64,000 bases of DNA, from NCBI GenBank assembly GCA_963702005.1, contig OY969696.1, positions 64,001-128,000 on the forward strand, given 5' to 3'. The notes beneath the pieces were generated by a model, which worked only from the letters and a program-made list of their open reading frames with translations, was not told the origin of the DNA and ran no database searches. Origin of the DNA: Candidatus Aminicenantes bacterium. Its GTDB lineage: Bacteria > Acidobacteriota > Aminicenantia > Aminicenantales > JAFGBC01. Positions 25,457 to 59,610 of the stretch are shown piece after piece (within the stretch, counting starts at the first letter, position 1; each line of letters starts with the position of its first letter). Position numbers and translations under genes: made by a program.

Positions 25457-25531
25457 GGGCGATTAACTCAGGGGTAGAGTACTACCTTCACACGGTAGGA
25501 GTCACAGGTTCAAATCCTGTATCGCCCACCA
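25457..25531 (+). tRNA. tRNA-Val(CAC); probable integration site
   Basis: Cloverleaf: acceptor GGGCGAT/ATCGCCC, anticodon stem CTACC-TTCACAC-GGTAG, T-loop TTCAAAT, encoded CCA. Confidence 0.97.
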
Positions 25532-26645
25532 CTTTATTATCAACGACTTGCGCGATCGCGCGTCCCGGCAAAATGGCAGGTGTGCCCAAAACTGTGCCCA
25601 AACTCGGGCCGGGTAGCTGGCCGACGACGCCGTGAAGATGCTTGTCGCTCAGGTGGGAATAGATCTCCGTCGTCTTGATGGACTTATGGCCCAGGAGCTG
25701 CTGGACCGCCCGGATATTTCCTGTCCGCATGACCAGGAAACTGGCAAACGTGTGCCGCCAAGTGTGGAGATTGGCGTCCCGGATGCCCAGCCTGTTCAGA
25801 TGATGGCGAAAACGGGCCTCAAGCGAGTGAATTTTGATTTTTTTGCCATCAGCCTTGGTAAAAACCCAGTTCGATCTTCTCTTCTTGTTCAGGAGCATGA
25901 AAGAGACTGCATCATGGAGTGGGATAATCCGTTCCTCGTTCCCTTTGGGCTTCCAGAAGTCCTTTGGCCGGACAGTAAGTCTATGCGCTATAAGATCAAC
26001 GTCGCTCCATTCGAGATTGACCAGCTCTCCGATACGCATGCCCGTATAGAGGAGCGTAAGATAGATTTCCCCTACCCAATTATCGCCGCAGGTATCGAGG
26101 ATTAGGCCCACTTCGGCTTCGCTGAAGAAACGCGGATTCTTTTTCGCCGTGCTCAAGAGCTTGACCCTCCGGGCCGGGCTTTCCTTAAGGAAACCAAGCT
26201 CCACCGCCCGGTTGAAAAACCGCTTTATTCCCTTGAGCTCCGTGTTCACGGTCGAACGGGCAACCTGGCTTCCCTTGCGCGACGGGGACGGCGCCTTGAG
26301 CCGGGAGGCTACATAGCCGTCGACCATGGCCATGTCCACGTCCCGGAGGCATTTTACGTTATGCTTCTCGGAAAGGTATTTTACGAAATGGTTGAGCGCG
26401 ATCGTATAATTGTGGGCGGTCTTCGCAGCCTGCCGGGCCCGGACGTATTCGAGGAACTCTTTCTGGAATAGGCCCAGCGGGATTTTCTGTCCGGAGACTA
26501 GCTCGTTGCGGGAGATCTTGTAAAGAATTTCTCCGTAGGCGTCCTCCGCCTGCTTCTTTTCCCTGCCGAGGCTGCGCCGGACCCGCTGGCCGGACTGGTA
26601 GAAGGTGATATACCAAAGCTTGCCTCGTCTGTATAACTTGGCCAT
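25488..26645 (-). CDS. Tyrosine recombinase/integrase
   Basis: YTGMRIGE (R), KPKG (K), HTWRH (HxxR), LLGH (H), TEIY (Y); N-terminal arm-binding-like region; last residues read antisense through the tRNA. Confidence 0.95.
   Translation of the reverse strand: MAKLYRRGKLWYITFYQSGQRVRRSLGREKKQAEDAYGEILYKISRNELVSGQKIPLGLFQKEFLEYVRARQAAKTAHNYTIALNHFVKYLSEKHNVKCLRDVDMAMVDGYVASRLKAPSPSRKGSQVARSTVNTELKGIKRFFNRAVELGFLKESPARRVKLLSTAKKNPRFFSEAEVGLILDTCGDNWVGEIYLTLLYTGMRIGELVNLEWSDVDLIAHRLTVRPKDFWKPKGNEERIIPLHDAVSFMLLNKKRRSNWVFTKADGKKIKIHSLEARFRHHLNRLGIRDANLHTWRHTFASFLVMRTGNIRAVQQLLGHKSIKTTEIYSHLSDKHLHGVVGQLPGPSLGTVLGTPAILPGRAIAQVVDNKVVGDTGFEPVTPTV
25581..25603 (+). repeat. Tandem direct repeat TGTGCCCAAA x2, candidate integrase arm-type sites
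   Basis: TGTGCCCAAAAC-TGTGCCCAAAC about 50 bp from the tRNA 3' end, inside the int coding sequence. Confidence 0.6.
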
Positions 26646-33298: not shown

Positions 33299-33760
33299 AT
33301 GAAAAAATTCGGAGAGCTTCTAAAAGGATTTCGAGAAAGAGCCGGTCTATCTCAGTACGAGTTATCCGACCTGGTTAAAATCCACCCTTCCCATATAAGC
33401 AGGCTTGAAAGAGGGGAAAGGAAGCCGAGACTGAAGAACGTGATACGCTTCATCAATGCGCTTTGCCTTAACGAAGAAGACGGAAACAAGCTTCTTCAAG
33501 CGGCAGGCTATTCTTCGAAAATTAACAAACCCCTCGTTTTTCATTCGCCTTTAGCCTTATACAATTTTGATCCGGACATCGCGGATTTCGATGCGACGAA
33601 AATTAACAATCCGGCAATCAAAGCCGTTTATGAGGCGCTGTCCGATCCGGAGTTATCCACAGAAGCAAAAAAAGAAATTGCGGTATCAGTGAAATCTTTA
33701 GCAGATTGGCTTAGAGATAAGATGAAGAAAGAATATCTTTCCCAAGCGAAAAAGCATTGA
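33299..33760 (+). CDS. XRE-family HTH transcriptional repressor
   Basis: FGELLKGFRERAGLSQYELS...SHISRLERGERKP. Confidence 0.9.
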   Translation: MKKFGELLKGFRERAGLSQYELSDLVKIHPSHISRLERGERKPRLKNVIRFINALCLNEEDGNKLLQAAGYSSKINKPLVFHSPLALYNFDPDIADFDATKINNPAIKAVYEALSDPELSTEAKKEIAVSVKSLADWLRDKMKKEYLSQAKKH

Positions 33761-35022
33761 ACGATTCGTTTCCTGATTTCCTATCGCTCAGTCACGCCTC
33801 ATATATAAGTAAAAGCCAAGAGTCGACAGGATATTTTAGCCCTCCTTACTTCGCCTTTATTCCTCATAAACTCAAGTCCTTCGATTCATACGAGCTAAAC
33901 TGGGCCTACAGTTTCTGGCATGAATTCTGGCACATGCGGAACAAGCAATGGTGCTATTTGGGCTCTTACGAGCTGATCCTCAACTATATTGCCGAAGATC
34001 TTTTGCTTTATGCCGCCAGCTCATCAATTTCTGATAAGACTTCGTTACAAAATAATCGTCATTTGAAGAAAGCTCTTGACATCGTAGAAAAGCTCTATCT
34101 GCTTCATCAGGTTTCTACCGTAGCAAATGAATTATCCCCTACCTATTACTTGCTAAACGAACGAACCCAATCGATTGTCTCATCTTCCCTGCAGGAATAT
34201 ATCTTGTCCACTTATTTCCCAAAGAAGAAATTTACTTCCCAACATGTCGCGGAGTATGTCCAAAAACACGGGGAGATCTTGCTTCGCAAACTTGAGAATG
34301 AGCCAGCTACCATAAGAAGGCCCGAGCATATCGAAGCATTCGTTTTAGGGACCTCGATAATTAATAAATGGCGTGATGTCTCTTACATTGACTCGATTCC
34401 TCTCCTGAGCATGCATATCAATATCTCTTATCTCGATCTATTCGAAAAAAATTTTAAATCACTGAGAAATCTAATCAAAAGCCTCCCCTTGCTGCTCAAT
34501 CCCGATTACCGTTTAAAAAAGATGGTTAAAGAAGGCGCCTTGCTCGTTTCTAGGAACAGGGAAAAGAACGATGCTCTATTTGTCTCAAACCTGCTCAGAA
34601 TGGCAACTCACAAAGACCTGCCGGCCAGCCTCAGAAAGAACAGAGCGGACATTAAAAGCCGATTGGACGAGGTCGTCAAGAGTGAAAGGACCGAGCGTCC
34701 TTCTCCGCGCAGAAAAATAAGTCAGCCAATCTTGATGTTCCCCACCGAAGCCGGAGATCTCTTCATTACTGAACCGGTCTACAAAAGAACCAACAAGATG
34801 GAAATCGTTCAAAGGATGCTTTCCATTTGCTATGCATCCGAATTGCTGTTAAGGTTATCGAGTTATTTCAGATACTCAAATGATATGCTTAGGGCCATCC
34901 GCTTCTCGCTAGCTTTTTTGAAGCAGAAGGTTAAAACCCCTTCCCTAATTTACGAACACATAGAACAAATATTGAAAAACAGCTTTGACAAGAAGATTAT
35001 CAATAGAATTATCCCTGAATAA
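33757..35022 (+). CDS. Hypothetical protein with N-terminal HExxH motif
   Basis: FWHEFWH; TTGA overlap with the XRE gene. Confidence 0.6.
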   Translation: MNDSFPDFLSLSHASYISKSQESTGYFSPPYFAFIPHKLKSFDSYELNWAYSFWHEFWHMRNKQWCYLGSYELILNYIAEDLLLYAASSSISDKTSLQNNRHLKKALDIVEKLYLLHQVSTVANELSPTYYLLNERTQSIVSSSLQEYILSTYFPKKKFTSQHVAEYVQKHGEILLRKLENEPATIRRPEHIEAFVLGTSIINKWRDVSYIDSIPLLSMHINISYLDLFEKNFKSLRNLIKSLPLLLNPDYRLKKMVKEGALLVSRNREKNDALFVSNLLRMATHKDLPASLRKNRADIKSRLDEVVKSERTERPSPRRKISQPILMFPTEAGDLFITEPVYKRTNKMEIVQRMLSICYASELLLRLSSYFRYSNDMLRAIRFSLAFLKQKVKTPSLIYEHIEQILKNSFDKKIINRIIPE

Positions 35023-35844: not shown

Positions 35845-36090
35845 GACTCAACCTCCCTTTTTTTATATGGTCTAGAAATGTATTGTTATTTAATGAGACA
35901 TTATCTTTTATATTAGGATTAACACCTAAAATTGGCTTATCCTTCTTTTTCTTCTTTTCATCTAAAAAGGCAATTTTTGCCAAGACAATTGATACTGATC
36001 TCTAATCTAATAACATATGAAAGGGAGGCATTAGGATCAAGGATGGGATAATATCCAACAAAATGTTAGTTTATGAAGGGGAGGTCTAAA

Positions 36091-36309
36091 ATGACGCGTG
36101 CGAAAATTGATTTAGTCAAAAGGAAACTCGAAGCTTCGGGAATTGCATCCATGGCCTCACGCGACGTCATAGATGCAAGTAATACAAATAAGGCGGCCAA
36201 TGCATGTCAGCCGGCTTGTGAGGCCTCGTGCCCACAAAATTGCTCGTCAACATGTAATACATGTAGCCCAAGCTGCACAACATGCCAGACTGGTGGATCT
36301 AAAAAGTAA
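36091..36309 (+). CDS. Cys-rich RiPP precursor candidate A (degenerate Tat-like leader)
   Basis: GGGGAGGT RBS; core CQPACEASCPQNCSSTCNTCSPSCTTCQTGGSKK with 8 Cys; upstream of radical SAM/SPASM gene. Confidence 0.82.
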   Translation: MTRAKIDLVKRKLEASGIASMASRDVIDASNTNKAANACQPACEASCPQNCSSTCNTCSPSCTTCQTGGSKK

Positions 36310-36340
36310 TCTTTAATGATTTAGTTGAAAAGAGGTCAAC

Positions 36341-36565
36341 ATGACCAATGAAAAGATCGATTTAGTACGAAGGAAATTATTAAAGTCAGGGCTTGCCGCG
36401 ATAGCCTCGGGCGGCCTTGTCGGCGCTGCTATCCTTGCCACCCCACATAAAGCTTCGGCGAATTGTCCGAGCGTTTGCTCAACTTCGTGTCCCGGAGATT
36501 GCTCGGTAACGTGTAATACATGTAGCCAAGGTTGCTCAACATGCCAGACTGGATCTAGCAAATAA
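36341..36565 (+). CDS. Cys-rich RiPP precursor candidate B with twin-arginine-like signal peptide
   Basis: VRRKLLK, hydrophobic SGLAAIASGGLVGAAILA, ASA site; core NCPSVCSTSCPGDCSVTCNTCSQGCSTCQTGSSK with 8 Cys in the same spacing as A. Confidence 0.85.
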   Translation: MTNEKIDLVRRKLLKSGLAAIASGGLVGAAILATPHKASANCPSVCSTSCPGDCSVTCNTCSQGCSTCQTGSSK

Positions 36566-36796
36566 GCCTGGTCAGCGTAATTTAATATTTCAATGGCAGC
36601 TTAATGATATTTCTGCTTTGAATTAGCCAAATTAGGAATAAGCAGTGGGTTGCTATATTTAAAGGAAGAATGAGGTTTATTTATTGATCTTTTTTTTAAA
36701 ATTAGCGATGGATATTTGGGAACAACAACTATATTTAGGCAACAGTTATTATTTAATGCTCAATTTGAAAATATATGATAAAAAAAGGAGGATGGC

Positions 36797-38230
36797 GTGC
36801 TAAATCAAGATAAAATATACCTTATAAATCCAAATTATGGAATAAGGAATGAAAAGACCAAAATATTAATATATGAGCAGGATCCAACAGATGGCGAAAT
36901 AGTAAAGTACAATTGTTTTAATCCAATTTATGGAATTTTTCTATCATTATTTGATGGGAAGAATACGTTCAAGGAAATTATCCAATTATACAGTCATTTA
37001 ATCGGCTCAAACTCATCCTTTGAAGATAATGCAAAGGGAATTGATAATTATATAAATCTACTTGAATCGAATTTTGGTCCAGAGTTGTTCCTGGATAAAA
37101 ATCAAATAGAATTAACAAATGTTCCAGAATACGATCCAATAAACTTTATCATTGACAAAAACGATATAGACCTATCCAATTCTCGTTTATCGGCGCCACT
37201 GAGTCTGAACTATGACGTGACGTTCAAATGCCCAAGAAATTGTATTTATTGTTATGCCGAGAATAATTATGCTCCGAGGATGACATTGCTCCCTCTTGAA
37301 CGAGTCAAAGAAATTATTGATGAAGCGAAAAATATTGGAGTAAAATATATTATTCTTGGGGGTGGAGATCCCTTCTCAAGGAAAGAATTTATTAAATTAT
37401 TGTCTTTAATCATAGAGAATGAAATAAAATATTTCGTATCAACAAAATCGTATTTATCTGAATACGTGTGCAAAGAATTACAAAAAATAGGGATGTTAAG
37501 AATTCAGGTAAGCATTGATTCAGCAAATGAAAAAACAGCTGATTTAATGACAGGCAGCAAAGGCTATTTTAAGCAGATAATCAGCTCTATAAAGAACCTG
37601 CAAAATAGTGGAATTGCTGTCAGATGCAAGGCAATAGTAACATCGCTAAATTTCAGAGAGATACCAAACCTCCTTTCATTCCTAGACACGCTAGGAATAA
37701 GGACGATTCAAGTGACTGGATATGGCATGTCAATGTATAGGCATTCTGAAAGCTTATTTATTACGAAGGAAGGTGAAAGATGGCTTTCAGAACGAGTAAA
37801 TGAGTTCAAGGACTTACATCCACATATAAAGATTATTTATGGAGGATTCGGATCAGAGTATCTGACCAAAGAAGATAAAGAGAGGGCCTGGAAAGGAAGA
37901 GCAAAATGTAGTGCTGGCAGAAGCGCATTGAATATTATTCCCAATGGCAAAGTTTCTTTTTGCGAACAGCTCCCCTCCACACCTGATTTTATCTTCGGTG
38001 ACCTAGCAAAACAATCGATCTTTGAAGCATGGAATTCTGACCAGCTAAAAGAATTACTGCTCCCAGATAAAAATAATTTTAAGGGAACTCCGTGTTTTGA
38101 TTGTGAAGAATTTATTGAATGCAATTCAGGCATGGGGAGATGCATAAGAGATTCTTTCAACATATTTAGATCAAAATATGCGCCGGATCCAAAATGTCCC
38201 AGAGTTATACAACCCGTTAAGATGTCATAA
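36797..38230 (+). CDS. Radical SAM/SPASM peptide maturase candidate
   Basis: CPRNCIYC, GGGDP, QVSIDS; SPASM CSAG..NG.V..C...CFDC....C...RC...C; ~130 aa N-terminal RRE/PqqD-like extension. Confidence 0.92.
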   Translation: MLNQDKIYLINPNYGIRNEKTKILIYEQDPTDGEIVKYNCFNPIYGIFLSLFDGKNTFKEIIQLYSHLIGSNSSFEDNAKGIDNYINLLESNFGPELFLDKNQIELTNVPEYDPINFIIDKNDIDLSNSRLSAPLSLNYDVTFKCPRNCIYCYAENNYAPRMTLLPLERVKEIIDEAKNIGVKYIILGGGDPFSRKEFIKLLSLIIENEIKYFVSTKSYLSEYVCKELQKIGMLRIQVSIDSANEKTADLMTGSKGYFKQIISSIKNLQNSGIAVRCKAIVTSLNFREIPNLLSFLDTLGIRTIQVTGYGMSMYRHSESLFITKEGERWLSERVNEFKDLHPHIKIIYGGFGSEYLTKEDKERAWKGRAKCSAGRSALNIIPNGKVSFCEQLPSTPDFIFGDLAKQSIFEAWNSDQLKELLLPDKNNFKGTPCFDCEEFIECNSGMGRCIRDSFNIFRSKYAPDPKCPRVIQPVKMS

Positions 38231-38290: not shown

Positions 38291-39445
38291 ATGCACAAGA
38301 AGATTCTGTTTATAGGATTAACTATAATTATCTCTACGTCATGTCTAGCTAACGATAGTAGACATTTCATTTTAGGCAAAGAACAGGGAGAGGGCAATTT
38401 AATATATCCATGGCATATTCAAGAGGGACCCGATGGAAACATATATGTTATGGACCAAGGTGATGCATATATAAAAGTATATTCTCCTGAAGGAAATTAT
38501 TTAAAGAGAATTGGAGGAAAAGGCCAAGGGCCAGGAGAATTTCAAAGAGCAGATGGCGCCAATTTTGGTTTTACACTGGGAGGCAAATTATATTTTACTG
38601 AATTCTTCGGAGGGCATAAGTGGATTACTTTGATCGATTTATCGGCGCGGCTAGATAAAGTTATTCATCCGGACATTGAACAAGCGTACGGTATTAACAA
38701 TTCTTTTTCTCTCGAAGATGGCGGATTTATTATCGAGGCCTGGTATAGTTCGATTCCAGAAATAAAAAGGGATTACTTTTTATACCATTATCCTCAATCT
38801 CTTTTAAGAATCGATTCAACCGGGAAGATCATTTCTGAAATAGTAAAGGCAAACTATTTTAAAACAATTTCCGCTTCAAGTAGCGGAGCGGATCAATGGC
38901 TTCCATATGTTCCAGCCTTCGCATGGACACCATATGATAAAGAATTAATACTCTTCTCGGATGGGCTTAATAATAAACTTAAGGTCTTTACTTACTCAGG
39001 ATCGTTTATTAATGAAATTAGGACTGAGCTTCCTGAACCAGAACCAGTTAAAGATAGTGATCTAAATGAGTGGAGAAGAACTAGGAGGGAAGCTATAAGA
39101 GATAGTTCGTGGTTTAATACGTTTGGAAAAGTGATTAATCAATATAAAAATTCCCTTTATGATAAGAAGCCAATTTTAGACAATATTTTTTCAACCCCTG
39201 ATGAGAATATCCTTATTGAAAGGTCGGTAAAAGAGGAGGGAACAAAAGAATTCTGGTTAATCGATAGAAATGGCAAAACAATCATTAAGACAGATATAGC
39301 TACTGAAAGATTAAGGATAGCTAAGCATTTCATATTCTTCATAGTAAAGGATGAAGAAGAAAATATTTTTGTTATTTGTTTGAAAAGAGTCGGGAATGAA
39401 AGCGAAGATCTTTTTACGGCACATAATATAAAAATATCGGAATAG
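38291..39445 (+). CDS. Secreted 6-bladed (NHL/TolB-like) beta-propeller protein
   Basis: Signal peptide; GNIYVMDQG..IKVYSPEG.Y..RIGGKGQGPGEF. Confidence 0.85.
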   Translation: MHKKILFIGLTIIISTSCLANDSRHFILGKEQGEGNLIYPWHIQEGPDGNIYVMDQGDAYIKVYSPEGNYLKRIGGKGQGPGEFQRADGANFGFTLGGKLYFTEFFGGHKWITLIDLSARLDKVIHPDIEQAYGINNSFSLEDGGFIIEAWYSSIPEIKRDYFLYHYPQSLLRIDSTGKIISEIVKANYFKTISASSSGADQWLPYVPAFAWTPYDKELILFSDGLNNKLKVFTYSGSFINEIRTELPEPEPVKDSDLNEWRRTRREAIRDSSWFNTFGKVINQYKNSLYDKKPILDNIFSTPDENILIERSVKEEGTKEFWLIDRNGKTIIKTDIATERLRIAKHFIFFIVKDEEENIFVICLKRVGNESEDLFTAHNIKISE

Positions 39446-39655: not shown

Positions 39656-40114
39656 TCATTCCATTTTCAACTTACAAAGAATTGTTATATGCGTTCCTAG
39701 CGCTTTATTTATTTTCCTCAATTTGCTCTCGATAAGATAAATATAATCATTTTTCTTAATCTTACACTTACGAAGATTAAATTGACAGTTTTTTAAATCC
39801 ACCGGGGAACAGACAAAATATTTCTTAAATTGCTTAATAAAATTCGAATAGTCGCCAAATCCCGATTCAAAGCATATTTCTGTCGTCGTTGTTTTAATAT
39901 TTGATCTCATTAAGCGTTTTGCTTCATATAATCGTCTTAAAATTACATATTTCTTAATTGTCAAACCAGTCTCTCTATGAAATACTCTCATTAAGTAATA
40001 TTTACTCAGATTGCATGCCTCAGATATTTCATTAAGAGAAATATCTGAATTAAATTCCTCGTTAATAAAAGATAGAGCATCGCGCACTCTTTGTGAAAAG
40101 ATACAATCTTTCAT
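39656..40114 (-). CDS. Stand-alone AraC-family HTH regulator
   Basis: ISLNEISEACNLSKYYLMRVFH.ETG, EICFESGFGDYSNF.KQFKK. Confidence 0.85.
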   Translation of the reverse strand: MKDCIFSQRVRDALSFINEEFNSDISLNEISEACNLSKYYLMRVFHRETGLTIKKYVILRRLYEAKRLMRSNIKTTTTEICFESGFGDYSNFIKQFKKYFVCSPVDLKNCQFNLRKCKIKKNDYIYLIESKLRKINKALGTHITILCKLKME

Positions 40115-47086: not shown

Positions 47087-48133
47087 ATGATCCACCCAAA
47101 AAGTATCGGGCTCTGGGGAATCCCCTTCATCGCCTTCGCCATTATCCCCGGTCCAGCCGCCAGCAGCCGGGAGCCGGAACGTCCAAAATTCTCGGTTACT
47201 ATCACCATCGGAATCGAAACGGCTGCGGACAAGGCGCAGGAGCCTTACCAGTTTTCATCGATCGGCTCAGCCGATTTCGACGCCCAAGGGAATATCTATG
47301 TCTTTGACTCCAAAGACTCCTGTATCAAGGTTTTCACAAAGACGGGCGATTTCCTGAGGAGATTCTTGAAACCGGGACAAGGCCCCGATGAAATCGAGAA
47401 CGCCTATGGTTTTAAAATTCTGAGGTCCAACAACCATATTTTCGTCCTGCATCAGCATGGTTTTCAGATCAAGGAATTCGACGAAGCCGGTCATTTCATC
47501 CGATCCCATCCCCTTCCGGAACAAGTCCTGAATGCCAGCTTCGTATTAATCGACGAAAAGCAGCTCCTCTACGTTGCTAGAATGAAATATGGAGAGACGC
47601 GTTTCAACAACTTGAAGATTCTGAGCCTTGAGACGAATAAGCTCATCCGGGAATTCGCTCCGGTGGACCTGGACTATTTTACGGGGCTTCAGAGAGTCGC
47701 GGTCAAGGATGGAATCGTCTGGACGTGCCCCGGAGACCTTTTAAGGGCCGAAGCTTTTGACCCGGAGACAGGGAGGAAACTCAAAACGATCCCTTTGGCC
47801 GAAGACTATGCGCCTCCTCAAGTTATCCGGTGGGGGAACAGCATCCAGAAATTCCGTCTATTCAACTATGCCCAGCCGTTTCTGATCGGCGACGATCTTT
47901 ATTTTATCATCGTCCGTCAATCCTTCACCAAAAAACCGGAAAGCATGCTGGACAAACCCCTAAAACGAGAGGCTAATGTCTATCGGCTGGCGGGGGATCG
48001 GCTGGTGGAGGAACAGGAGTTTCCCGAGTTCGATTTTCTACCGGAGTTTCTCGCCGCTTGGGAGAATAAGCTTCTCGTCTCAAGCTCAGGCTACGATCTT
48101 TATCCACGACTGAAGGTCATCGAACTCCATTAG
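47087..48133 (+). CDS. Secreted 6-bladed beta-propeller protein
   Basis: Signal peptide; DAQGNIYVFDS...IKVFTKTG.FLR....GQGPDE. Confidence 0.82.
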   Translation: MIHPKSIGLWGIPFIAFAIIPGPAASSREPERPKFSVTITIGIETAADKAQEPYQFSSIGSADFDAQGNIYVFDSKDSCIKVFTKTGDFLRRFLKPGQGPDEIENAYGFKILRSNNHIFVLHQHGFQIKEFDEAGHFIRSHPLPEQVLNASFVLIDEKQLLYVARMKYGETRFNNLKILSLETNKLIREFAPVDLDYFTGLQRVAVKDGIVWTCPGDLLRAEAFDPETGRKLKTIPLAEDYAPPQVIRWGNSIQKFRLFNYAQPFLIGDDLYFIIVRQSFTKKPESMLDKPLKREANVYRLAGDRLVEEQEFPEFDFLPEFLAAWENKLLVSSSGYDLYPRLKVIELH

Positions 48134-52022: not shown

Positions 52023-53213
52023 TTAAACCTCTTTAAGAACCGCAGTAAATGCGTATCGGTAAATATGTGCATTAAAGTTCTCCCATCTTGTAATAACGCC
52101 ACCGGCTTCCGGATGAGCGCAATCGGTAGGCGGCCACGGATCGTAGACCAGCAAGCCTTTAAAGGGGAGCTGGTTGGGAAGGTGGATCATTGAGTTGGTG
52201 TATCCGGCAACCGTTCGTGAATGACCGGGAAGGAAGCTTATTAGCGGACGGTTGGCTTTGATTTCGGTCGGATAGGTGGACCATGCCGGATTAGCGACAG
52301 CAGTAGCATCGAGGGTATTGGAAGATAGCTTCTCTATCGTATCCACGACTTTATGCTCATCTCCATACGGCAGACCATTGGGATGGTCGCAGGTTCCCAA
52401 ATCCATTTCAATGGCAAGGCGGGGCTGGCTGTATTGATAGCGATAGAAATTCATGAGCATTTCCACGCTGGCGGCGACGCACCAGACAGGGGTCTGCTGA
52501 CCGCGTAGCTCATAGCATGGATGATGGTCGTCATCCCGGGGCGAATAATGTATTTCACGCGTATCCACGAGTTTGATGATAATCTTATCTACATCGAAAA
52601 TCGACTTGTTGATAACAAGCGGATTAAGGCGGCTAACAGTCGGGGTGTCCCATACAGCCCTACGCTCTTTAAAGCTGCGCATTCTGGCAGTTTTAATCTC
52701 TGCGGGCATTTCCTCGATCAGGCTCCAGCGTTCGAAGTAAGACGGTTCCATAGGTTTATGCCGCGTAGATTGCGTCGGTACTTCCGCCCAGCTCTTCCAT
52801 TCAAGCATCAGCACTTCTTGCCCTTTCAAGAGAAACTGAATGGCTATTTTTGGGAAACTGTAAGCCACAAAACGGGCGCTATCAAACTGTATTGAACGGC
52901 TCTTTTTACGCGCCTCGGCGCTGGCCTGCTCTAGAATTGTTTTTTCATTCCACACTTCCCCCATAGTAACAGCTAATAGCAGCTCACCCAAGATATCGTT
53001 GGCCGCGATATCAGTATATCCGGCGGAAGTACGACCCCGGCTTAACGGCAAGCGGTAGAACAATATCGTGCCATTAATATCATAAACAGGTGTTCCAGTG
53101 GCCGGAACGCTGACTTTATCGAATTCACTGCCGAGGACTTCAGTGATGCGGAGGGCATTTAACTCAAAGCCCGCAAGACGCTGAATCTGTTTGATAGAGA
53201 CTGGCATATTCAT
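52023..53213 (-). CDS. Papain-like cysteine protease (C39-like)
   Basis: Q...WCVAAS, GHSRTVAGY, VYDPWP give a putative Cys-His-Asp triad. Confidence 0.78.
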   Translation of the reverse strand: MNMPVSIKQIQRLAGFELNALRITEVLGSEFDKVSVPATGTPVYDINGTILFYRLPLSRGRTSAGYTDIAANDILGELLLAVTMGEVWNEKTILEQASAEARKKSRSIQFDSARFVAYSFPKIAIQFLLKGQEVLMLEWKSWAEVPTQSTRHKPMEPSYFERWSLIEEMPAEIKTARMRSFKERRAVWDTPTVSRLNPLVINKSIFDVDKIIIKLVDTREIHYSPRDDDHHPCYELRGQQTPVWCVAASVEMLMNFYRYQYSQPRLAIEMDLGTCDHPNGLPYGDEHKVVDTIEKLSSNTLDATAVANPAWSTYPTEIKANRPLISFLPGHSRTVAGYTNSMIHLPNQLPFKGLLVYDPWPPTDCAHPEAGGVITRWENFNAHIYRYAFTAVLKEV

Positions 53214-53489
53214 CTCCTTATATAAAGATTAAACTCCCCCCTGCCCTGTACTAAAGCAAGGCATCAAAAAGGAAACGGCCATTTCCCTTAAGCTACTAAA
53301 TGCATATTAAATATAGAATAATAATTGCAAATGTCAAGAGTAACACGCTCGGAAAGATTATATTTTTTTGAATAGGGAAATGGGTACATGCCGATAGGAA
53401 TTTCCTTTTTCCACCCAGCTTAATAGCGCCGGCTTCAGACTCAGAATGAAACTTCCTCGCTCACCTCGGCCGCGATCAGGGCCTCTCAC

Positions 53490-53784
53490 TTAAGTACCAA
53501 AAAATACCCCGCCAAACAAAAATGAAAAGGGCGGACTGCCCAATCCGGGCATCCATCCTTCTTTTCGAATAATCGCTGATAATAGCGGCAGACGTCTCTT
53601 GAACTTGGGCTCATCGGCACATACGATCTGATCGTGGATTCCCTCTCGGTCATCGGTCAGGAAGTGCGCCTCTTTGTCGGGCAAGAACTGCTTTAAAAAC
53701 ATACTTAAGCAGACGCTGGGACTTGTCCGTCTGGCTCATCGTTTTCCCGAAGTGCAGGTCGCTGACGTGAATGATCCGAATCAT
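53490..53784 (-). pseudogene. Metallophosphoesterase 5' remnant
   Basis: AAGGAGG RBS then MIRIIHVSDLHFG..., frame ends after 44 codons. Confidence 0.55.
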
Positions 53785-53870
53785 GGTGCCTCCTTCTTCA
53801 TGGGATACTCAATCAGGGCAATTGTTAGCGATAATCAGGCTATTAGGGAAAGCGCTCGCGTTCATGACTC

Positions 53871-54302
53871 TCAATTTCGTTGCTTATCTTTAGCGCATTC
53901 GTCATATTTTTCTAGGTGATCTAGGTCAAACCGAACAGAAGAAAAGAGGATTGGACCATCGAGCTTAATCGTGCAACTGTAATCGAACATTATTAGCCTT
54001 TGGCCATCGTAAACTTTTAATAGGTAATATGTCCGATGAGGGATAACTTCCAGGCGATATTTCTTCAAGAGTCTATAGCGGCTTTCGCTAACTTCTTTTT
54101 TGACGATACTCAACAAATTGGCCGCATCAAAATCATCGGGGATATTGCAGCCGTATTCTCCAATAACTTTGTCAGAAGCATACGTTACGGTGGAGCCAAG
54201 CGTTCCGTAATCTCTTTTTTGCTTTTCGATGCTTGATATACAGCAAGCCGCTGCGATCAGCAAGATTGCCGCAATAAAAAAGATCCGAATTTTCTTGGCC
54301 AT
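53871..54302 (-). CDS. Putative lipoprotein
   Basis: Signal peptide ending IAAAC. Confidence 0.6.
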   Translation of the reverse strand: MAKKIRIFFIAAILLIAAACCISSIEKQKRDYGTLGSTVTYASDKVIGEYGCNIPDDFDAANLLSIVKKEVSESRYRLLKKYRLEVIPHRTYYLLKVYDGQRLIMFDYSCTIKLDGPILFSSVRFDLDHLEKYDECAKDKQRN

Positions 54303-54303
54303 T

Positions 54304-55221
54304 TTAGCCCCAGTAGGTCATGACGTTGGTCAGGGCATCGATGCCCGTATCAAGGTTCCAGTTTTTAATTACATCGGCGACGACAAAAGGAGATCTCAGA
54401 CCCTCGTACAACCTGTTCCAGGCATCGACGACATTTTTTACAGACCGTTCAAAGCCGTCCTCTAAGAACGTTCCAATATTTCCGCCCGGGAGTTTGACAT
54501 TTGCATAGTAATCCTGGTAATCCTGCGGAAAGTCATGCCTAATTTCCTCCGCAGTTTTGTATAAATATCTTTTTCCAAGACCAAGGTGTCTAAAAAAGGC
54601 CGCTATCTCGGAACCATCGATGGTATCAAGAGCGGTCGTGTATGTATCAAACCAGAGTCTCGGATTCGGATTATCTTTCCGGGCATAGGCCTTCCGTGCG
54701 AGGCCCTTCCAGAACTTCAACAATTCATCAAAGCCAGCATGATTTCTACAGAACCTTGGGATGTCTATGAACTCAGCATAGGTAATGTCAATATTCTTCT
54801 GCTTGAAGAATATCAGAGAATCCTGCGCCATCTCGCACGCGCAGTGCCTTGCCTTGTTTTGCGCGTAGGGCCCAACTATGGCTTCTACGATCGGATGGAT
54901 AGTAACGTCCGCGACCAGATGAGATACGTAGCCCATCAGCCAGACGAACGAAAGCTCGTCCGAATCCTGCCAGTCGGAAACCCGATTTTTTAATTGGCCA
55001 AATCCGAGCTCCACTATGAGGTTGGTTTTCTCATAATGCATGCAGTCAGCCCAATTAGTTTTGCCTGTCTTAAAACTAAGATATGGCAAGTCCGGGCTTA
55101 CTGAACCCAAAAACAAGAATTGCGAATACTTGTTGAGGATTCGCATGAGTCCCGTGCCCAGCAGTTCGCCTTTTCTCTTTGCTGCATCGCTTATGATGAA
55201 ATGAGTAAATGCCCCGGCCAT
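54304..55221 (-). CDS. Zinc-dependent phospholipase C family protein
   Basis: AFTH N-terminus, GSVSPDLPY, MHY, GYVSHLVAD...HP, H..CE. Confidence 0.82.
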   Translation of the reverse strand: MAGAFTHFIISDAAKRKGELLGTGLMRILNKYSQFLFLGSVSPDLPYLSFKTGKTNWADCMHYEKTNLIVELGFGQLKNRVSDWQDSDELSFVWLMGYVSHLVADVTIHPIVEAIVGPYAQNKARHCACEMAQDSLIFFKQKNIDITYAEFIDIPRFCRNHAGFDELLKFWKGLARKAYARKDNPNPRLWFDTYTTALDTIDGSEIAAFFRHLGLGKRYLYKTAEEIRHDFPQDYQDYYANVKLPGGNIGTFLEDGFERSVKNVVDAWNRLYEGLRSPFVVADVIKNWNLDTGIDALTNVMTYWG

Positions 55222-55297
55222 TTCCCCCTCCTTGCGGTTCTTTCTTTTTATCCCCTTTTTGCCTTTTCTCCGGGATCCGGAATCCCGTCCAGCCAAT

Positions 55298-56344
55298 TCA
55301 CCAGATTCTTTCAGCCTTCTTGCTTTCGACCTTGTCCTGGACGTCCTTGGGCAGGGACGACAGGAAATCCAGACCGGTCATTTGCTCAATCTCGTCTATC
55401 GATACGAGGTATTCGCCGTAAGCGTGGCCTCTCAGGTCCTTGTTGGGCAGGAGGAAGGCCAGCGCTTCCACGTCGTTCTGATTCTTGGCGTCGATGACGA
55501 TCTTGAAGAAGTGGGTGGGCACTGCGACGCTGTCCTTTCCGATCACGGGATAGGAAACCTTTTTATCGGCGACGGCGAATGCCGGACCCGTAATCACCGT
55601 CAGGGTGCCCTTCTGTTCCACCCATCCCCTCACGGCCTCCTCCAGGTCTTTCCAGATGCCCTGATTAAATCCAACGCCTACTTGCGGGGCCATGTTCGAG
55701 AGCAGGAAGCTCTCGGCCATCACTTTATCGCTTCTGCTCATGTCCGCAGCCGGCGCTTGGTGTCCCCTGTCGTAGCCGCTGCCCGCGTAGTCGCTCAGTT
55801 CGGCGCGGGAGCCATAAGGTATTGACGTGTCCGGCGCGAATGCGTTCGTCCGCTCGACTCCGCCGCTCAGGTCTCCGGGGCTTATCTCATACTGGACCCA
55901 TACCGGAATCTTCAGCCTGGCATCTTGGGCAAGCGCGTAGCCTTCCCGGAAACGTTCATACAAGGCCTCAGGCTTGCCGACTTTCAAATGGCGATTTGGC
56001 TGTGCCGTTTCTGCGCTTATCTTTTCTTCCGCTGCTGCCGGCGCTTCGACGGTCGCGCCTTCCGCCGTTCCCTCGCAGCGCCTCACGTACGTCTTGTAAA
56101 TCCAGCCCGCCTGCCCGGTGACGGGATTGGACACGTGATAATAGCCGGCCTTTCTGTTCGAGGCGTCGTCCGGATAGATCTGCAGCTGGGCGCCTTCCTC
56201 GACGGCGCAGACCACCGCAGACTTCTTTGTCGGGCCTTCATAAACGTCGGCTTTCCTCGTGACCCTGAGGAAGTCGGCGAACGACAAGCTCGACAGCAAC
56301 GAGAAAAGCAGGCCGAGCCATGCGAGAGATTTAATGGTTTTCAT
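55298..56344 (-). CDS. Secreted DNA/RNA non-specific endonuclease with N-terminal SH3-like domain
   Basis: GYDRGHQAPAAD, SFLLSNMAPQ...FNQGIW..LE..VR, VPTHFFKI; SH3b-like GWIY. Confidence 0.92.
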   Translation of the reverse strand: MKTIKSLAWLGLLFSLLSSLSFADFLRVTRKADVYEGPTKKSAVVCAVEEGAQLQIYPDDASNRKAGYYHVSNPVTGQAGWIYKTYVRRCEGTAEGATVEAPAAAEEKISAETAQPNRHLKVGKPEALYERFREGYALAQDARLKIPVWVQYEISPGDLSGGVERTNAFAPDTSIPYGSRAELSDYAGSGYDRGHQAPAADMSRSDKVMAESFLLSNMAPQVGVGFNQGIWKDLEEAVRGWVEQKGTLTVITGPAFAVADKKVSYPVIGKDSVAVPTHFFKIVIDAKNQNDVEALAFLLPNKDLRGHAYGEYLVSIDEIEQMTGLDFLSSLPKDVQDKVESKKAERIW

Positions 56345-56741
56345 TGGAGGCCTTGACGGCATGCTTTGCCAATTTTGCGGACAGCTTGGCCTGCCTTTCC
56401 TTTTCCGCGCTGCTCATGAAGCCCAGAACGTCCCTGAACAGCTTCACTGAAGCCTTGCTGCCGCCCGAAATTATGGCTCCGGTGATCACGTAGCCAAGAA
56501 AGTTCGTCTTGTCGGCAAGGATGATGATGCTGAGGGCGTCGAATTTCCACAAGAAGCAAACCAGGGCGCATACGAACAGGGAGATGAATTCCTTGGTGCC
56601 CTTGTCTTCGCAGTGCTTTATGAAAAGCCTGTTTTCGAAGATGATGGAAAGGCCCCGTTCAATCAGGAAGGCAAGGACGACGATCGTAACCAAGACCTCA
56701 AACGTTCTTTCCCAGTCGAGATGAAAAAGGTTCGGATCCAT
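56331..56741 (-). CDS. Hypothetical membrane protein
   Basis: Three hydrophobic segments; G.IISGGSK motif; first gene of a 4-gene operon. Confidence 0.6.
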   Translation of the reverse strand: MDPNLFHLDWERTFEVLVTIVVLAFLIERGLSIIFENRLFIKHCEDKGTKEFISLFVCALVCFLWKFDALSIIILADKTNFLGYVITGAIISGGSKASVKLFRDVLGFMSSAEKERQAKLSAKLAKHAVKASNENH

Positions 56742-57055: not shown

Positions 57056-58117
57056 ATGCCTAAGAAATCTCGGCAATTTTATTTAATCGGCGCAGTCATA
57101 TTAATTAACGTCGTTTTGATTGGACTAAATATTTTCATCATAAGGGAAAAGAAAAAAGAATTTAAAAGGCTCTCGGAGCTGAGAAAATCAACAGAGGCAA
57201 ACCAATTTTATGAAAATTCCTCCAAGGAATTCATGAATATGGATTGCCCCGAAATCGTAGCGAATTCCGTCGAGGGGAACGGAATCGCGCTTAGGCAATA
57301 CGCCGGAAGCGTAATAATCATTCAGTTCAGCAGATTCTATAAGGAGGATTTGCCCAATCTCGTCTATCTCCAGAACCTTGCCGACAAATATCGAAAATTG
57401 GGCGTTTTCCTGTTGTTCGTTAATACGAGAGGGAAGCAAGATGCGAGTGGGGTGGGAAAATTCGTTACTCTGTCCTACCCCGTCATTGAAGATGATGGAA
57501 CGATACGAGCTCAATTCAATGCGTATCCTGAGGATACGATCATCGTAGACCGCAATTTCAAGATCAAGTTCAAAAACGCCCGGTTTATAAAACCCATTAT
57601 CTACGACGAACTCATTAAGTGGCTTTTTGAAAATCGTGATCAACCAAAATCTTCGGCGCCAGAAGATTTATCCAAATCCATAAAAAGCCTAGTCTATTAT
57701 GACGTTTTGAAGAAAAAGATCATTAGAATGGAGCAAGTCCATAAGAAAATCGTTGCCACCTTCTCTGCTTCTTTGTGTACGGGCTGCGAGGAGAACAGCA
57801 GAATTCAACTATTAAAAGATCTTTCGAGCAAAATTGCTCCGGAAAAAGGGGAGATATTCCTGATCTTCGGGAAAGGCAACAATCCAGATGCGATTCGGCA
57901 ATATGCCATGGTTCAAGAATGGGAGAAAGTTCCCTTCAATATCGGCGTCATCGAGGGCTCCGTCGATATAGATGAAGGTCTTTATTATCAGCTTTTCAAG
58001 CTCGACATTGATCCAAGAACCCTCGTTTTCGATTCGGCCAGAAAGCCGATATTCGTCGAATCCCGTAAAAACACAAATTCGCTTAGCATTGATCCATTAT
58101 TGCGAATGATAAAATGA
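57056..58117 (+). CDS. Membrane-anchored redoxin/thioredoxin-fold protein (two domains)
   Basis: N-terminal TM; redoxin-like LQNLADKY..LGV...YPVI.D...YPEDTIIVD without CxxC; second domain with CTGC. Confidence 0.65.
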   Translation: MPKKSRQFYLIGAVILINVVLIGLNIFIIREKKKEFKRLSELRKSTEANQFYENSSKEFMNMDCPEIVANSVEGNGIALRQYAGSVIIIQFSRFYKEDLPNLVYLQNLADKYRKLGVFLLFVNTRGKQDASGVGKFVTLSYPVIEDDGTIRAQFNAYPEDTIIVDRNFKIKFKNARFIKPIIYDELIKWLFENRDQPKSSAPEDLSKSIKSLVYYDVLKKKIIRMEQVHKKIVATFSASLCTGCEENSRIQLLKDLSSKIAPEKGEIFLIFGKGNNPDAIRQYAMVQEWEKVPFNIGVIEGSVDIDEGLYYQLFKLDIDPRTLVFDSARKPIFVESRKNTNSLSIDPLLRMIK

Positions 58118-59256
58118 AGCAACCGAGGGTGCTGATAATTCTCATTTTAGGAACAAGTTGTCTATTAACGGGCTATCGGAATGCTCCAGCATCGCGGACG
58201 ATTAGCAAGTTGGAAAAAAGATCTGAGAGACATCGGTCTGTTTTGACCAAAAATGCAGCACTCCTAGGCATTTCAGACAAAGAACGAATCACTTCTCTTG
58301 AAGAAATAGGCAAAATAGAAAACGGGTTTAGCAGCGCTGATGATAACTATTTTGAAAACATCAATTCAGTTTGCTTGGACGCCAATAATAATTTATACGT
58401 TGCCGATTCTGGAGTCCATAAAATATTCAAATTTAACGATCGAGGGAAATTTCTGTTTTCTTTTGGAAAACTGGGTCAGGATAAGGCAGAATTCTTGGGA
58501 ACAATGAGGATTTCTATAGGCAACGATGGGAAGCTCTACATAACCGATGATGGAAATTGGCGTTTGTCTATTTATGATCTGGAAGGACATTTTATCCAGC
58601 AGTTCCCGATAGACAAGTATATCTATGACATCGCTCTAGCGAAATCGAATGGCGATATATACCTCATCTCGCCAAGTGGAATAAGTCTAATCGATTACTA
58701 TGATAAAGAAATGCATCTGAAAGGCTCCTTGGTTGAATATTCTAGCCACCTTGATTTCCCCTATGAAGTCCCTCCGAAAAAAATGCTTAAATTAATGTCT
58801 AGGCCGTCGATCATTGATTTAAAAAAACTCATGACCAAAAAGGATGAACTAATTCTCGTTTCTAATAATTCGCTATTTATCTTTTTGATAGATAACGATC
58901 ATAGGATTAAAAACAAATTCAGAATCGCGCATCCTCGGCTTATAGAGAATTATATAAAGCGCTTAAAGGAAATAGAGTTAAAAGGAGGCTGGCTCCAGTG
59001 CTTTGGCTCAGCATTTCTCGATAGCAAAGAGAACATTTGTCTTTGTTATTACAACACGGACATAGAGCAACCCGAGATCTATCGATATAGCACAAACGGG
59101 TTTTTTATCGATGTTATAAGAATGAATGTATCCGGCGAAAACGAAGCCCAATCGAATCGTGTCCTCGAGGCTTGCGATAGCAAAGGTAATATGTATTCAA
59201 TTGATTCGAATTTACAAAAAATCGTTATTTATCGAGAAAAAAGGGAACATGAATAA
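58114..59256 (+). CDS. Secreted NHL / 6-bladed beta-propeller protein
   Basis: NNLYVADSG.HKIFKF...G.FLFSFGK.GQ..AEF; ATGA coupling. Confidence 0.82.
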   Translation: MKQPRVLIILILGTSCLLTGYRNAPASRTISKLEKRSERHRSVLTKNAALLGISDKERITSLEEIGKIENGFSSADDNYFENINSVCLDANNNLYVADSGVHKIFKFNDRGKFLFSFGKLGQDKAEFLGTMRISIGNDGKLYITDDGNWRLSIYDLEGHFIQQFPIDKYIYDIALAKSNGDIYLISPSGISLIDYYDKEMHLKGSLVEYSSHLDFPYEVPPKKMLKLMSRPSIIDLKKLMTKKDELILVSNNSLFIFLIDNDHRIKNKFRIAHPRLIENYIKRLKEIELKGGWLQCFGSAFLDSKENICLCYYNTDIEQPEIYRYSTNGFFIDVIRMNVSGENEAQSNRVLEACDSKGNMYSIDSNLQKIVIYREKREHE

Positions 59257-59307: not shown

Positions 59308-59610
59308 ATGAAAAAAGGGTTGCGTGGAGGGATTCTTGCTATGTTCGTTCTCCTCTGTGTCATGACCGTTGCCAATCTCGTGTATTCTACGTGGCCTTGT
59401 GAGCTAGCAGGCCCAACTAGTCAGTGCAATCATATAGCAACCCTGTACTGTCGCGGCATCTGCGGCGGCACAGGTAAGTGCCAAAGTGTCATTTGGAATT
59501 ACAATTTCTGTAATGATGAAATGTGCTATGAGAGATATGTAATCATATGCACAGATGGAAGAGAATATTCTTATGATTGCAATAGCAATGCTGGCTTCTG
59601 TCCGAAATGA
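59308..59610 (+). CDS. Secreted Cys-rich small protein
   Basis: AGGAGGT RBS; Sec-type signal; 10 Cys in the mature region. Confidence 0.72.
   Translation: MKKGLRGGILAMFVLLCVMTVANLVYSTWPCELAGPTSQCNHIATLYCRGICGGTGKCQSVIWNYNFCNDEMCYERYVIICTDGREYSYDCNSNAGFCPK

Follow-up and report, generated by a model that had tools for sequence, protein, structure and literature searches.

How cross-linked ribosomal peptides get out of a cell that gives them no transporter of their own is a practical question still to be answered, and it is raised by a small locus in the 64,000-nucleotide stretch of Candidatus Aminicenantes DNA analysed here (hereafter the window), where two short Cys-rich genes, A and B, lie side by side upstream of the gene for a radical SAM enzyme. 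The question is what these two peptides are, and whether the differences between their leaders decide where each of them goes. The reading that we favour, to which we give a probability of roughly 0.55, is that A and B are tandem RiPP precursors with a docking leader, that B is exported by the Tat pathway, and that A is modified but export-defective.

Both precursor genes are on the forward strand, A at 36091..36309 (72 aa) and B at 36341..36565 (74 aa), as assigned from the list of open reading frames, BLASTP and alignment. Each is preceded by a ribosome-binding site read from the sequence, GGAGG (36080..36084) 6 nt 5′ of the ATG of A and AAGAGG (36330..36335) 5 nt 5′ of the ATG of B; an alternative longer frame of A, starting at 36073, has no ribosome site. 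In a single BLASTP comparison (E 1e-23) the proteins are identical at 39 and positive at 50 of 74 positions, with a single 3-residue gap, and the mean column identity of the DNA alignment is 77%. They have in common the N-terminal motif K-I-D-L-V-(K/R)-R-K-L-x-x-S-G, and eight of eight core Cys align. In A, the leader motif (residues 5–17, with K10-R11 at 36118-36123) is followed by a polar and charged segment (residues 18–33), by A36-N37-A38 (36196-36204) immediately ahead of Cys39, and by the 8-Cys core (36205-36306). In B, the motif contains R10-R11 (36368-36373) and is followed by an uncharged hydrophobic stretch (residues 16–36), by A38-S39-A40 (36452-36460) and then an Asn ahead of Cys42, the 8-Cys core occupying 36461-36562.

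A six-frame scan of the 4.31 Mb genome with a regular expression for this motif returned three matches, namely A, B and one unrelated 37-aa frame, and across 161 loci the expression matched only small Cys-rich ORFs adjoining maturase homologues; the similarity between A and B is therefore not due to chance. A and B are tandem paralogues. An earlier note on this DNA, made from the letters alone, had described much of this correctly: the motif, there written KIDLV(K/R)RKL..SG.A, is present in both proteins, the two exact stretches of core DNA that it pointed out (16 and 15 bases) occur in both genes, and the alignment shows A with KR for RR, a polar segment in place of the h-region, and ANA kept. 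The alignment further reveals how the two leaders diverge. Three Gly of B correspond to R24, D25 and D28 in A, each change involving one or two bases, and the hydrophobic stretch is 3 residues shorter in A through a 3-codon deletion.

The next gene, 231 bases downstream of B and on the same strand, encodes a radical SAM/SPASM peptide maturase of 477 aa (36797..38230), identified by domain searches, alignment and model. Pfam searches identify a Radical_SAM domain (E 3.9e-26) and a SPASM domain (E 6.9e-10), preceded by a predicted N-terminal peptide-binding domain of about residues 1–130; the CX3CX2C motif is formed by C145, C149 and C152, and a SPASM auxiliary-cluster Cys set is present. These three Cys, together with C371, C389, C433, C442, C449 and C467, are invariant in 22 homologues, and C436 is conserved in at least 90% of them; about 20 homologues at 37–48% identity are found in metagenome assemblies. 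The AF2 model has a pLDDT of 90.7, and its best full-length Foldseek matches, which include the N-terminal domain, are SuiB (E 5e-19), SkfB (E 1e-17), PqqE and 5wgg/5why (E 1e-15), at sequence identities of 15–19%. The titles of the last two entries refer to thioether bond formation in sactipeptides, and we take the protein to be CteB, the SCIFF maturase. The AlbA model matches maturase residues 53–420.

The maturase nevertheless falls below the cut-off of every curated NCBIfam model, the nearest approach being 103 bits with the mycofactocin maturase model (cut-off 265). TIGR04115 (cut-off 350 bits) has three matches at E ≤ 1e-5 in the genome, which exclude the window maturase and none of which reaches the cut-off, and Pfam PqqD gave no match in the window maturase, though it is recorded for two distant homologues. 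By its conserved Cys and modelled fold, the protein is intact and belongs to a branch of RiPP-type radical SAM/SPASM enzymes that has no name as yet. The locus is a real, compact RiPP-type cluster of that branch, in which the cores of A and B are most likely cross-linked by the adjacent enzyme.

The surroundings of the cluster point to an acquired element. Between 33 and 40 kb the GC content is 31–44%, compared with about 60% for the genome. A tRNA-Val gene (25457-25531, forward strand) overlaps the 3′ end region of a tyrosine integrase gene (25488-26645, reverse strand), and the two likely mark the boundary of a mosaic island that carries the cluster. From the tRNA-Val/integrase to the end of the window the GC content moves up and down from 31% to 61%, a pattern suggestive of integrated elements stacked on one another. 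Two genomes of the same genus (83% and 92% complete) yielded no copy of the maturase, which occurs in 2 of 246 genomes in the order and in 10 of 339 in the class, this genome being counted in both. Given the low GC, the mosaic region with its tRNA-Val and integrase, and the scattered distribution of the maturase, the cluster is an acquired, sporadically distributed cassette.

Several other genes share this region. At the left edge of the low-GC block (33299-35022), a 421-aa ORF, for which no family match was obtained, shares its first 4 bases with an XRE-type HTH gene. An AraC-type HTH gene at the edge of the block (39656..40114, reverse strand) is, judged from its sequence and position, a possible regulator of the cluster. 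Starting 60 bp past the maturase, on the same strand and at equally low GC, is a gene for an NHL/DUF5128 six-bladed beta-propeller (38291..39445) whose lipoprotein-like signal ends in Cys; its link to the peptides is uncertain, and its candidacy as a conserved partner was rejected as unproven, since it is absent from four related loci or genomes described below (L084, L163, G677 and G1035). Two further DUF5128/NHL six-bladed propellers are encoded in the same island region (47087-48133 and 58114-59256) and resemble the maturase-adjacent propeller only weakly (BLASTP E 1e-9 and 1e-4 over one repeat). The third propeller gene is followed directly by a 100-aa ORF (59308-59610) that has a signal-peptide-like N-terminus and 11 Cys and is unlike A or B. 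Three consecutive minus-strand genes (52026-56362) encode a Peptidase_C39-like protein, a zinc-dependent phospholipase C and a non-specific DNA/RNA endonuclease. Neither a protease nor a transporter of its own was found in the window cluster.

Relatives of the precursors were informative about which parts of the leader are general. A word-index search with B returned only B itself, and phmmer with B against 1.84 billion representatives returned B, a variant of A (P0042) and a spurious 2229-aa low-complexity protein. As B alone matches nothing beyond A by sequence, relatives were sought by gene context, using a 10-sequence maturase alignment as the query for genome- and metagenome-contig scans. 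Among the matches listed, the contig scans gave one close locus (L084) and three distant loci (L004-L006), of which L005 and L006 (Pseudoalteromonas, 30%) yielded no motif-bearing precursor. The maturase homologues of L084 and of two genomes, G677 and its congener G1035, are 44–48% identical. L084 encodes two small peptides with RR, a hydrophobic stretch and a Cys core, one upstream and one downstream of the enzyme, and ABC-2 permease pairs follow the maturase in both L084 and G677. The downstream peptide of L084 (5448-5624) has only 3 Cys, and its gene overlaps the start of the first ABC-2 permease gene.

G677 has four tandem precursor copies and G1035 has one, on a short contig. Copy 1 of G677 carries RR and is the one most like the single copy of G1035 (56% identity), while the other three have KE, KE or RK instead of RR and keep the hydrophobic stretch. 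In the G677 locus (L171, G677:C38, 3736-13537), the gene next after the maturase encodes a 296-aa signal-bearing protein, which G1035 has too, and then come two NosY-like ABC-2 permeases; an apolipoprotein N-acyltransferase, a B12-binding radical SAM enzyme, a NEW3-domain protein and an ABC ATPase are encoded further along. A profile search of 5.8 billion proteins gave 12 proteins at E ≤ 10 among 1416 candidates and added P0051, P0052 and P0053, all with RR and a hydrophobic stretch, although their precursor arrays are known from single called proteins alone; the contigs of P0052 and P0053 agree in length with those of two maturase homologues. In total, RR plus hydrophobic stretch occurs in eight relatives (P0047, P0048, P0051-53, the L084 downstream peptide, G677 copy 1 and G1035). 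Two of these, P0047 and P0051, have weak matches to CopL-family metal-binding regions (E 1.3 and 0.047).

Beside maturase homologues of 29–34% identity the precursors have short leaders with a docking-type motif and no hydrophobic stretch. They are found at L163 (3 tandem copies), L004, L173, L175, L176, L177, L179 (2 copies), L180 and L182, and their cores end in C-x-x-C-x-x-G. No clear precursor candidate was seen at L174, L178 or L181, L174 and L181 overlapping L180 and L176 on the same contigs. These two overlaps (L174/L180 on G1059:C21 and L176/L181 on G1058:C289) lie in large genomes of the same class, where two maturase homologues stand side by side with short-leader Cys-rich precursors nearby. 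Overall, a small Cys-rich ORF with the leader motif directly adjoins the maturase homologue in 12 of the 16 listed loci. Comparison of long- and short-leader loci implies that ordinary leaders are family-wide and that RR with the hydrophobic insertion belongs to one sub-branch, which includes the window.

The common N-terminal motif is supported as a leader element that would dock on the N-terminal domain of the maturase. The motif aligns across precursors that lie beside maturase homologues of 29–48% identity, with or without the hydrophobic segment, with G17 and L18 nearly invariant in the leader alignment. A complex model of maturase residues 1–135 with A residues 1–42 gave an ipSAE of 0.76 (median of 3 runs), compared with 0.00 for the best of 3 controls; the runs shared at least 76% of contacts, with partner pLDDT of at least 70. 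The ipSAE mark is reached by 116 of 157 solved complexes and by 2 of 215 mismatched pairs, a calibration that holds only roughly here as the alignments were custom-made, and the pass may partly reflect likeness, since leader/maturase complexes of other families have been solved (SuiB with SuiA). The lowest-error contacts are between A residues 6, 9, 10, 12, 13, 16 and 17, which show helical spacing, and maturase residues 47, 64–70 and 114–121. That KIDLVxRKL is the maturase recognition motif, as had been proposed earlier, is thus consistent both with its retention in precursors near related maturases and with the modelled docking of A, the leader for which the suggested structure model with the recognition domain was run. 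The enzyme does not need the hydrophobic stretch, which is absent from the leaders of L163 and L004.

What B has in addition to a docking motif resembles a Tat signal. The Tat consensus is an (S/T)-R-R-x-F-L-K-like n-region with consecutive Arg-Arg, and rules of the TATFIND type look for an uncharged, moderately hydrophobic stretch of about 13 or more residues after the RR. Residues 9–15 of B read V-R-R-K-L-L-K and so contain the Arg pair, which is missing from the equivalent V-K-R-K-L-E-A of A. B also has a 21-residue uncharged run rich in Gly and Ala, with a best 13-residue hydropathy of 2.0, whereas the longest uncharged run in the first 45 residues of A is 9 residues (35–43, from the end of the leader into the start of the core), with a hydropathy of 0.75. 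The run in B is followed by a basic c-region (His, Lys) and then A-S-A, a candidate signal peptidase I site. Residues 3–41 of B match the Tat region of TIGR02811 (E 0.001, below cut-off), and TatC (PF00902) is encoded in the same genome (229.5 bits). Pfam TAT_signal (PF10518) scored 8.4 bits for B against a cut-off of 22.7 and did not match A.

We consider it probable that B is exported by Tat. Of the earlier claim to this effect, the RR, the 21-residue run, ASA, the TatC of the genome and the eight relatives speak in its favour, and the sub-threshold Pfam score and the three non-RR copies of G677 against it. Those copies, with KE, KE and RK, indicate that RR is not essential to every family member, and the hydrophobic segment could serve Sec export or another role. 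The lack of a protease and a transporter in the cluster would fit a peptide that relies on housekeeping machinery to leave the cell and shed its leader. In a full-text literature search with few subscription journals among its sources, we found no paper on a Tat signal in a radical SAM peptide precursor. According to parts of two papers, it is very unusual for cross-linked RiPP precursors to carry signal peptides, and the Sec-dependent bufferins are the only ones for which this has been shown (PMC11626156, PMC12452194).

The polar leader of A is a derived state, because A is closest to B (55% identity, compared with 22–34% to the five other long-leader copies, four from G677 and one from G1035) and those five copies are all hydrophobic at this position. 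Despite this change, A bears the marks of a maintained gene. By the Nei-Gojobori method the dN/dS between A and B is 0.26 for the whole length, with 0.25 for the middle segment and 0.38 for the core, an estimate from 71 codons that does not separate the A and B lineages or say which of them was constrained. Changes affect 31.8 of 49.8 synonymous and 48.2 of 163.2 non-synonymous sites (Fisher p = 2e-5), and the synonymous sites of the leader are saturated or nearly so. A second strain is represented by contigs of one other study that span both genes (about 99% identity) and contain neither a frameshift nor a stop in them; there, A has a conservative S70T in one run, corresponding to protein P0042, and B has two synonymous changes. 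The spacer between B and the maturase (36566-36796) differs there by 5 substitutions and a 1-base insertion, and there is a 6-base insertion in the region of the maturase stop (38227).

Low dN/dS, the GGAGG site and a reading frame that is intact here and in the second strain thus argue that A is not decaying. A would then be an old, well-kept duplicate under purifying selection, and appears from these comparisons to be a conserved, export-defective paralogue. A polar A-type copy is absent from the relatives inspected at the DNA level (L084, G677 and G1035) and from the profile search of 5.8 billion proteins, so the state of A is lineage-specific. The earlier note had named the lack of an A-type copy in homologous clusters as a sign of a decaying duplicate; the copy is indeed lacking in relatives, but A itself is intact under purifying selection and decay is unsupported. 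To its further question, whether homologous clusters keep one Tat-positive and one Tat-negative copy, the answer is mixed: in G677 one copy of four has RR, and in L084 both do. On this evidence, extra copies tend to lose the Tat hallmarks and yet seem to stay conserved, a pattern equally in line with duplicates being less in need of export, with hitchhiking and with a cytoplasmic role.

Comparison with known systems helps to place the locus. Among curated families the nearest is TIGR04117 (Syntroph_Cxxx, 'Cys-Xaa-Xaa-Xaa repeat radical SAM target protein'; with TIGR04118 and TIGR04114), whose curators, as we understand them, describe a small protein with a Tat-like N-terminal region and Cys-x-x-x repeats, encoded beside a radical SAM enzyme and with tandem paralogues. 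Residues 3–69 of B align to profile positions 19–86 (E 1.7e-7). However, at 31.3 bits B is below the cut-off of 50 and A, at 7.3 bits, is far below it, and the core of A and B is a short one of 8 Cys that closes with its own C-x-x-C-Q-T-G motif. To our knowledge the family has never been characterised experimentally. Searches on the Desulfobacterota side for members above the cut-off found them in 0 of 5 and 0 of 401 genomes, with one sub-threshold match, L169, which has S-R-R-K-F-L-K, a hydrophobic stretch and Cxxx repeats, and a second copy upstream. The architecture of L169 and TIGR04117 means that a Tat-type leader with Cys repeats and a radical SAM enzyme already exists in the libraries as an uncharacterised kind.

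SkfB and 5wgg/5why, by fold, and AlbA, by sequence only, have the same arrangement of Radical SAM, SPASM and N-terminal domains, with a Cys-rich substrate encoded next door. We know of no ranthipeptide- or sactipeptide-type precursor that carries an export signal peptide. By function, the nearest studied systems are the thioether-forming SPASM maturases, that is the sactipeptide and ranthipeptide enzymes and CrpC, the chemistry being predicted for the enzyme described here. In methanogens, CrpC is described, in part of PMC13692751, as installing ranthionine links on its Cys-rich neighbour CrpA. The likeness to SuiB/SuiA (streptide; TM 0.62–0.69 over about 490 columns for SuiB) and to PqqE/PqqA (phmmer E 2e-13 for PqqE) lies in a leader that, as predicted for A and B, binds the N-terminal domain; SuiB and PqqE, for their part, introduce C-C cross-links, and their substrates are not rich in Cys. 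There is no sequence-level family membership. For the logic of export, the bufferins are nearest. As portions of PMC11626156 and PMC12452194 have it, the bufferins (BufA, with the MNIO BufB/BufC) are Cys-containing RiPP precursors with an N-terminal Sec signal peptide, for which housekeeping machinery performs export and leader removal. Theirs are Sec signals, MNIO enzymes and copper-binding heterocycle peptides with no radical SAM enzyme, and here, unlike in the bufferins, the putative docking motif lies inside the n-region of the candidate signal.

Other explanations account for part of these observations. A might be a functionless duplicate drifting to loss, with B alone of importance, as could be argued from the absence of a polar A-type copy from L084, G677, G1035 and the profile search, and from the extra G677 copies, which also lack RR and could reflect relaxed constraint on duplicates. 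A dN/dS of 0.26 with synonymous sites near saturation (p = 2e-5), together with the retention of eight Cys, the docking motif, the GGAGG site and a frame intact in a second strain, makes this unlikely. We also think it improbable that RR and the hydrophobic segment of B form a Sec-type signal, a membrane tether or simply part of the leader, with export through the ABC-2 transporters of related clusters. The ABC-2 permease pairs after the maturase in L084 and G677 could be real exporters, TAT_signal is sub-threshold, and the KE, KE and RK copies of G677 keep the hydrophobic segment; yet the window cluster has no transporter, and V-R-R-K-L-L-K, the Gly/Ala-rich stretch of moderate hydropathy, the basic c-region and ASA of B are more in keeping with Tat, as is the textbook S-R-R-K-F-L-K ahead of the Cxxx repeats in L169, a sub-threshold relative of TIGR04117. 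A cross-linked peptide would moreover be a poor Sec substrate, as is argued in part of PMC11626156.

The two peptides could instead act together, the single RR copy B piloting the signal-defective A through Tat or the enzyme linking one to the other, which we regard as quite unlikely. Tat does co-export signal-less partners, for example hydrogenase and DMSO reductase subunits; exactly one RR copy is found in two of the three multi-copy long-leader arrays (one of two in the window and one of four in G677), and the signal-defective copies are old and conserved. L084, with two RR copies, does not follow this pattern, G1035 has a single copy on a short contig, and the non-RR copies of G677 retain a hydrophobic stretch that a passenger would not need. 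A wider form of the idea, in which RiPP leader and Tat signal are one fused element, each array has one Tat-competent pilot, and signal-defective paralogues (A and three in G677) are modified by the same enzyme and either ride out with the pilot or stay cytoplasmic, is equally speculative and hardly to be favoured. It is very improbable that A and B are small Cys-rich metal- or cluster-binding proteins that merely lie beside a radical SAM gene and are not its substrates. Tat commonly carries cofactor-loaded proteins, and P0047 and P0051 have their weak CopL-family matches, but the adjacency of leader-motif Cys-rich ORFs to maturase homologues in 12 of 16 listed loci, the complex model and the full-length resemblance of the maturase to peptide-modifying enzymes all argue for enzyme substrates.

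Export of B by Tat, with A modified but export-defective, remains the reading we prefer. In the proposed mechanism, the leader helix K-I-D-L-V-(K/R)-R-K-L-x-x-S-G would dock on the N-terminal peptide-binding domain of the adjacent radical SAM/SPASM enzyme, which would modify the Cys-rich core in the cytoplasm, most likely by forming Cys-derived thioether cross-links. In B and its closest relatives the docking leader would be fused with a twin-arginine signal, the RR lying inside the docking motif and being followed by the Gly/Ala-rich stretch and A-x-A. The peptide, once modified and folded, would leave through Tat and lose its leader to signal peptidase I, which would explain a cluster that lacks a protease or transporter of its own. 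A may have arisen from a B-type gene by an old duplication, after which the docking motif and eight Cys would have been kept under purifying selection while the twin-Arg (K for R10) and the hydrophobic stretch were lost, the latter via Gly-to-Arg/Asp changes and the 3-codon deletion. With the docking motif and Cys kept and the export part lost, A is probably still modified, and not exportable alone.

The locus offers a compact test system, with two precursors, one enzyme and neither protease nor transporter, and as A and B differ mainly in the export module the pair is a natural control. If signal-defective paralogues do ride out with one Tat-competent pilot, or are deliberately kept in the cytoplasm, Tat hitchhiking or compartment-splitting would be seen for the first time in ribosomal natural products. 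If Tat export of B holds, it would provide a route suited to macrocyclic peptides that are already folded, and a single leader would serve enzyme docking and export at once.
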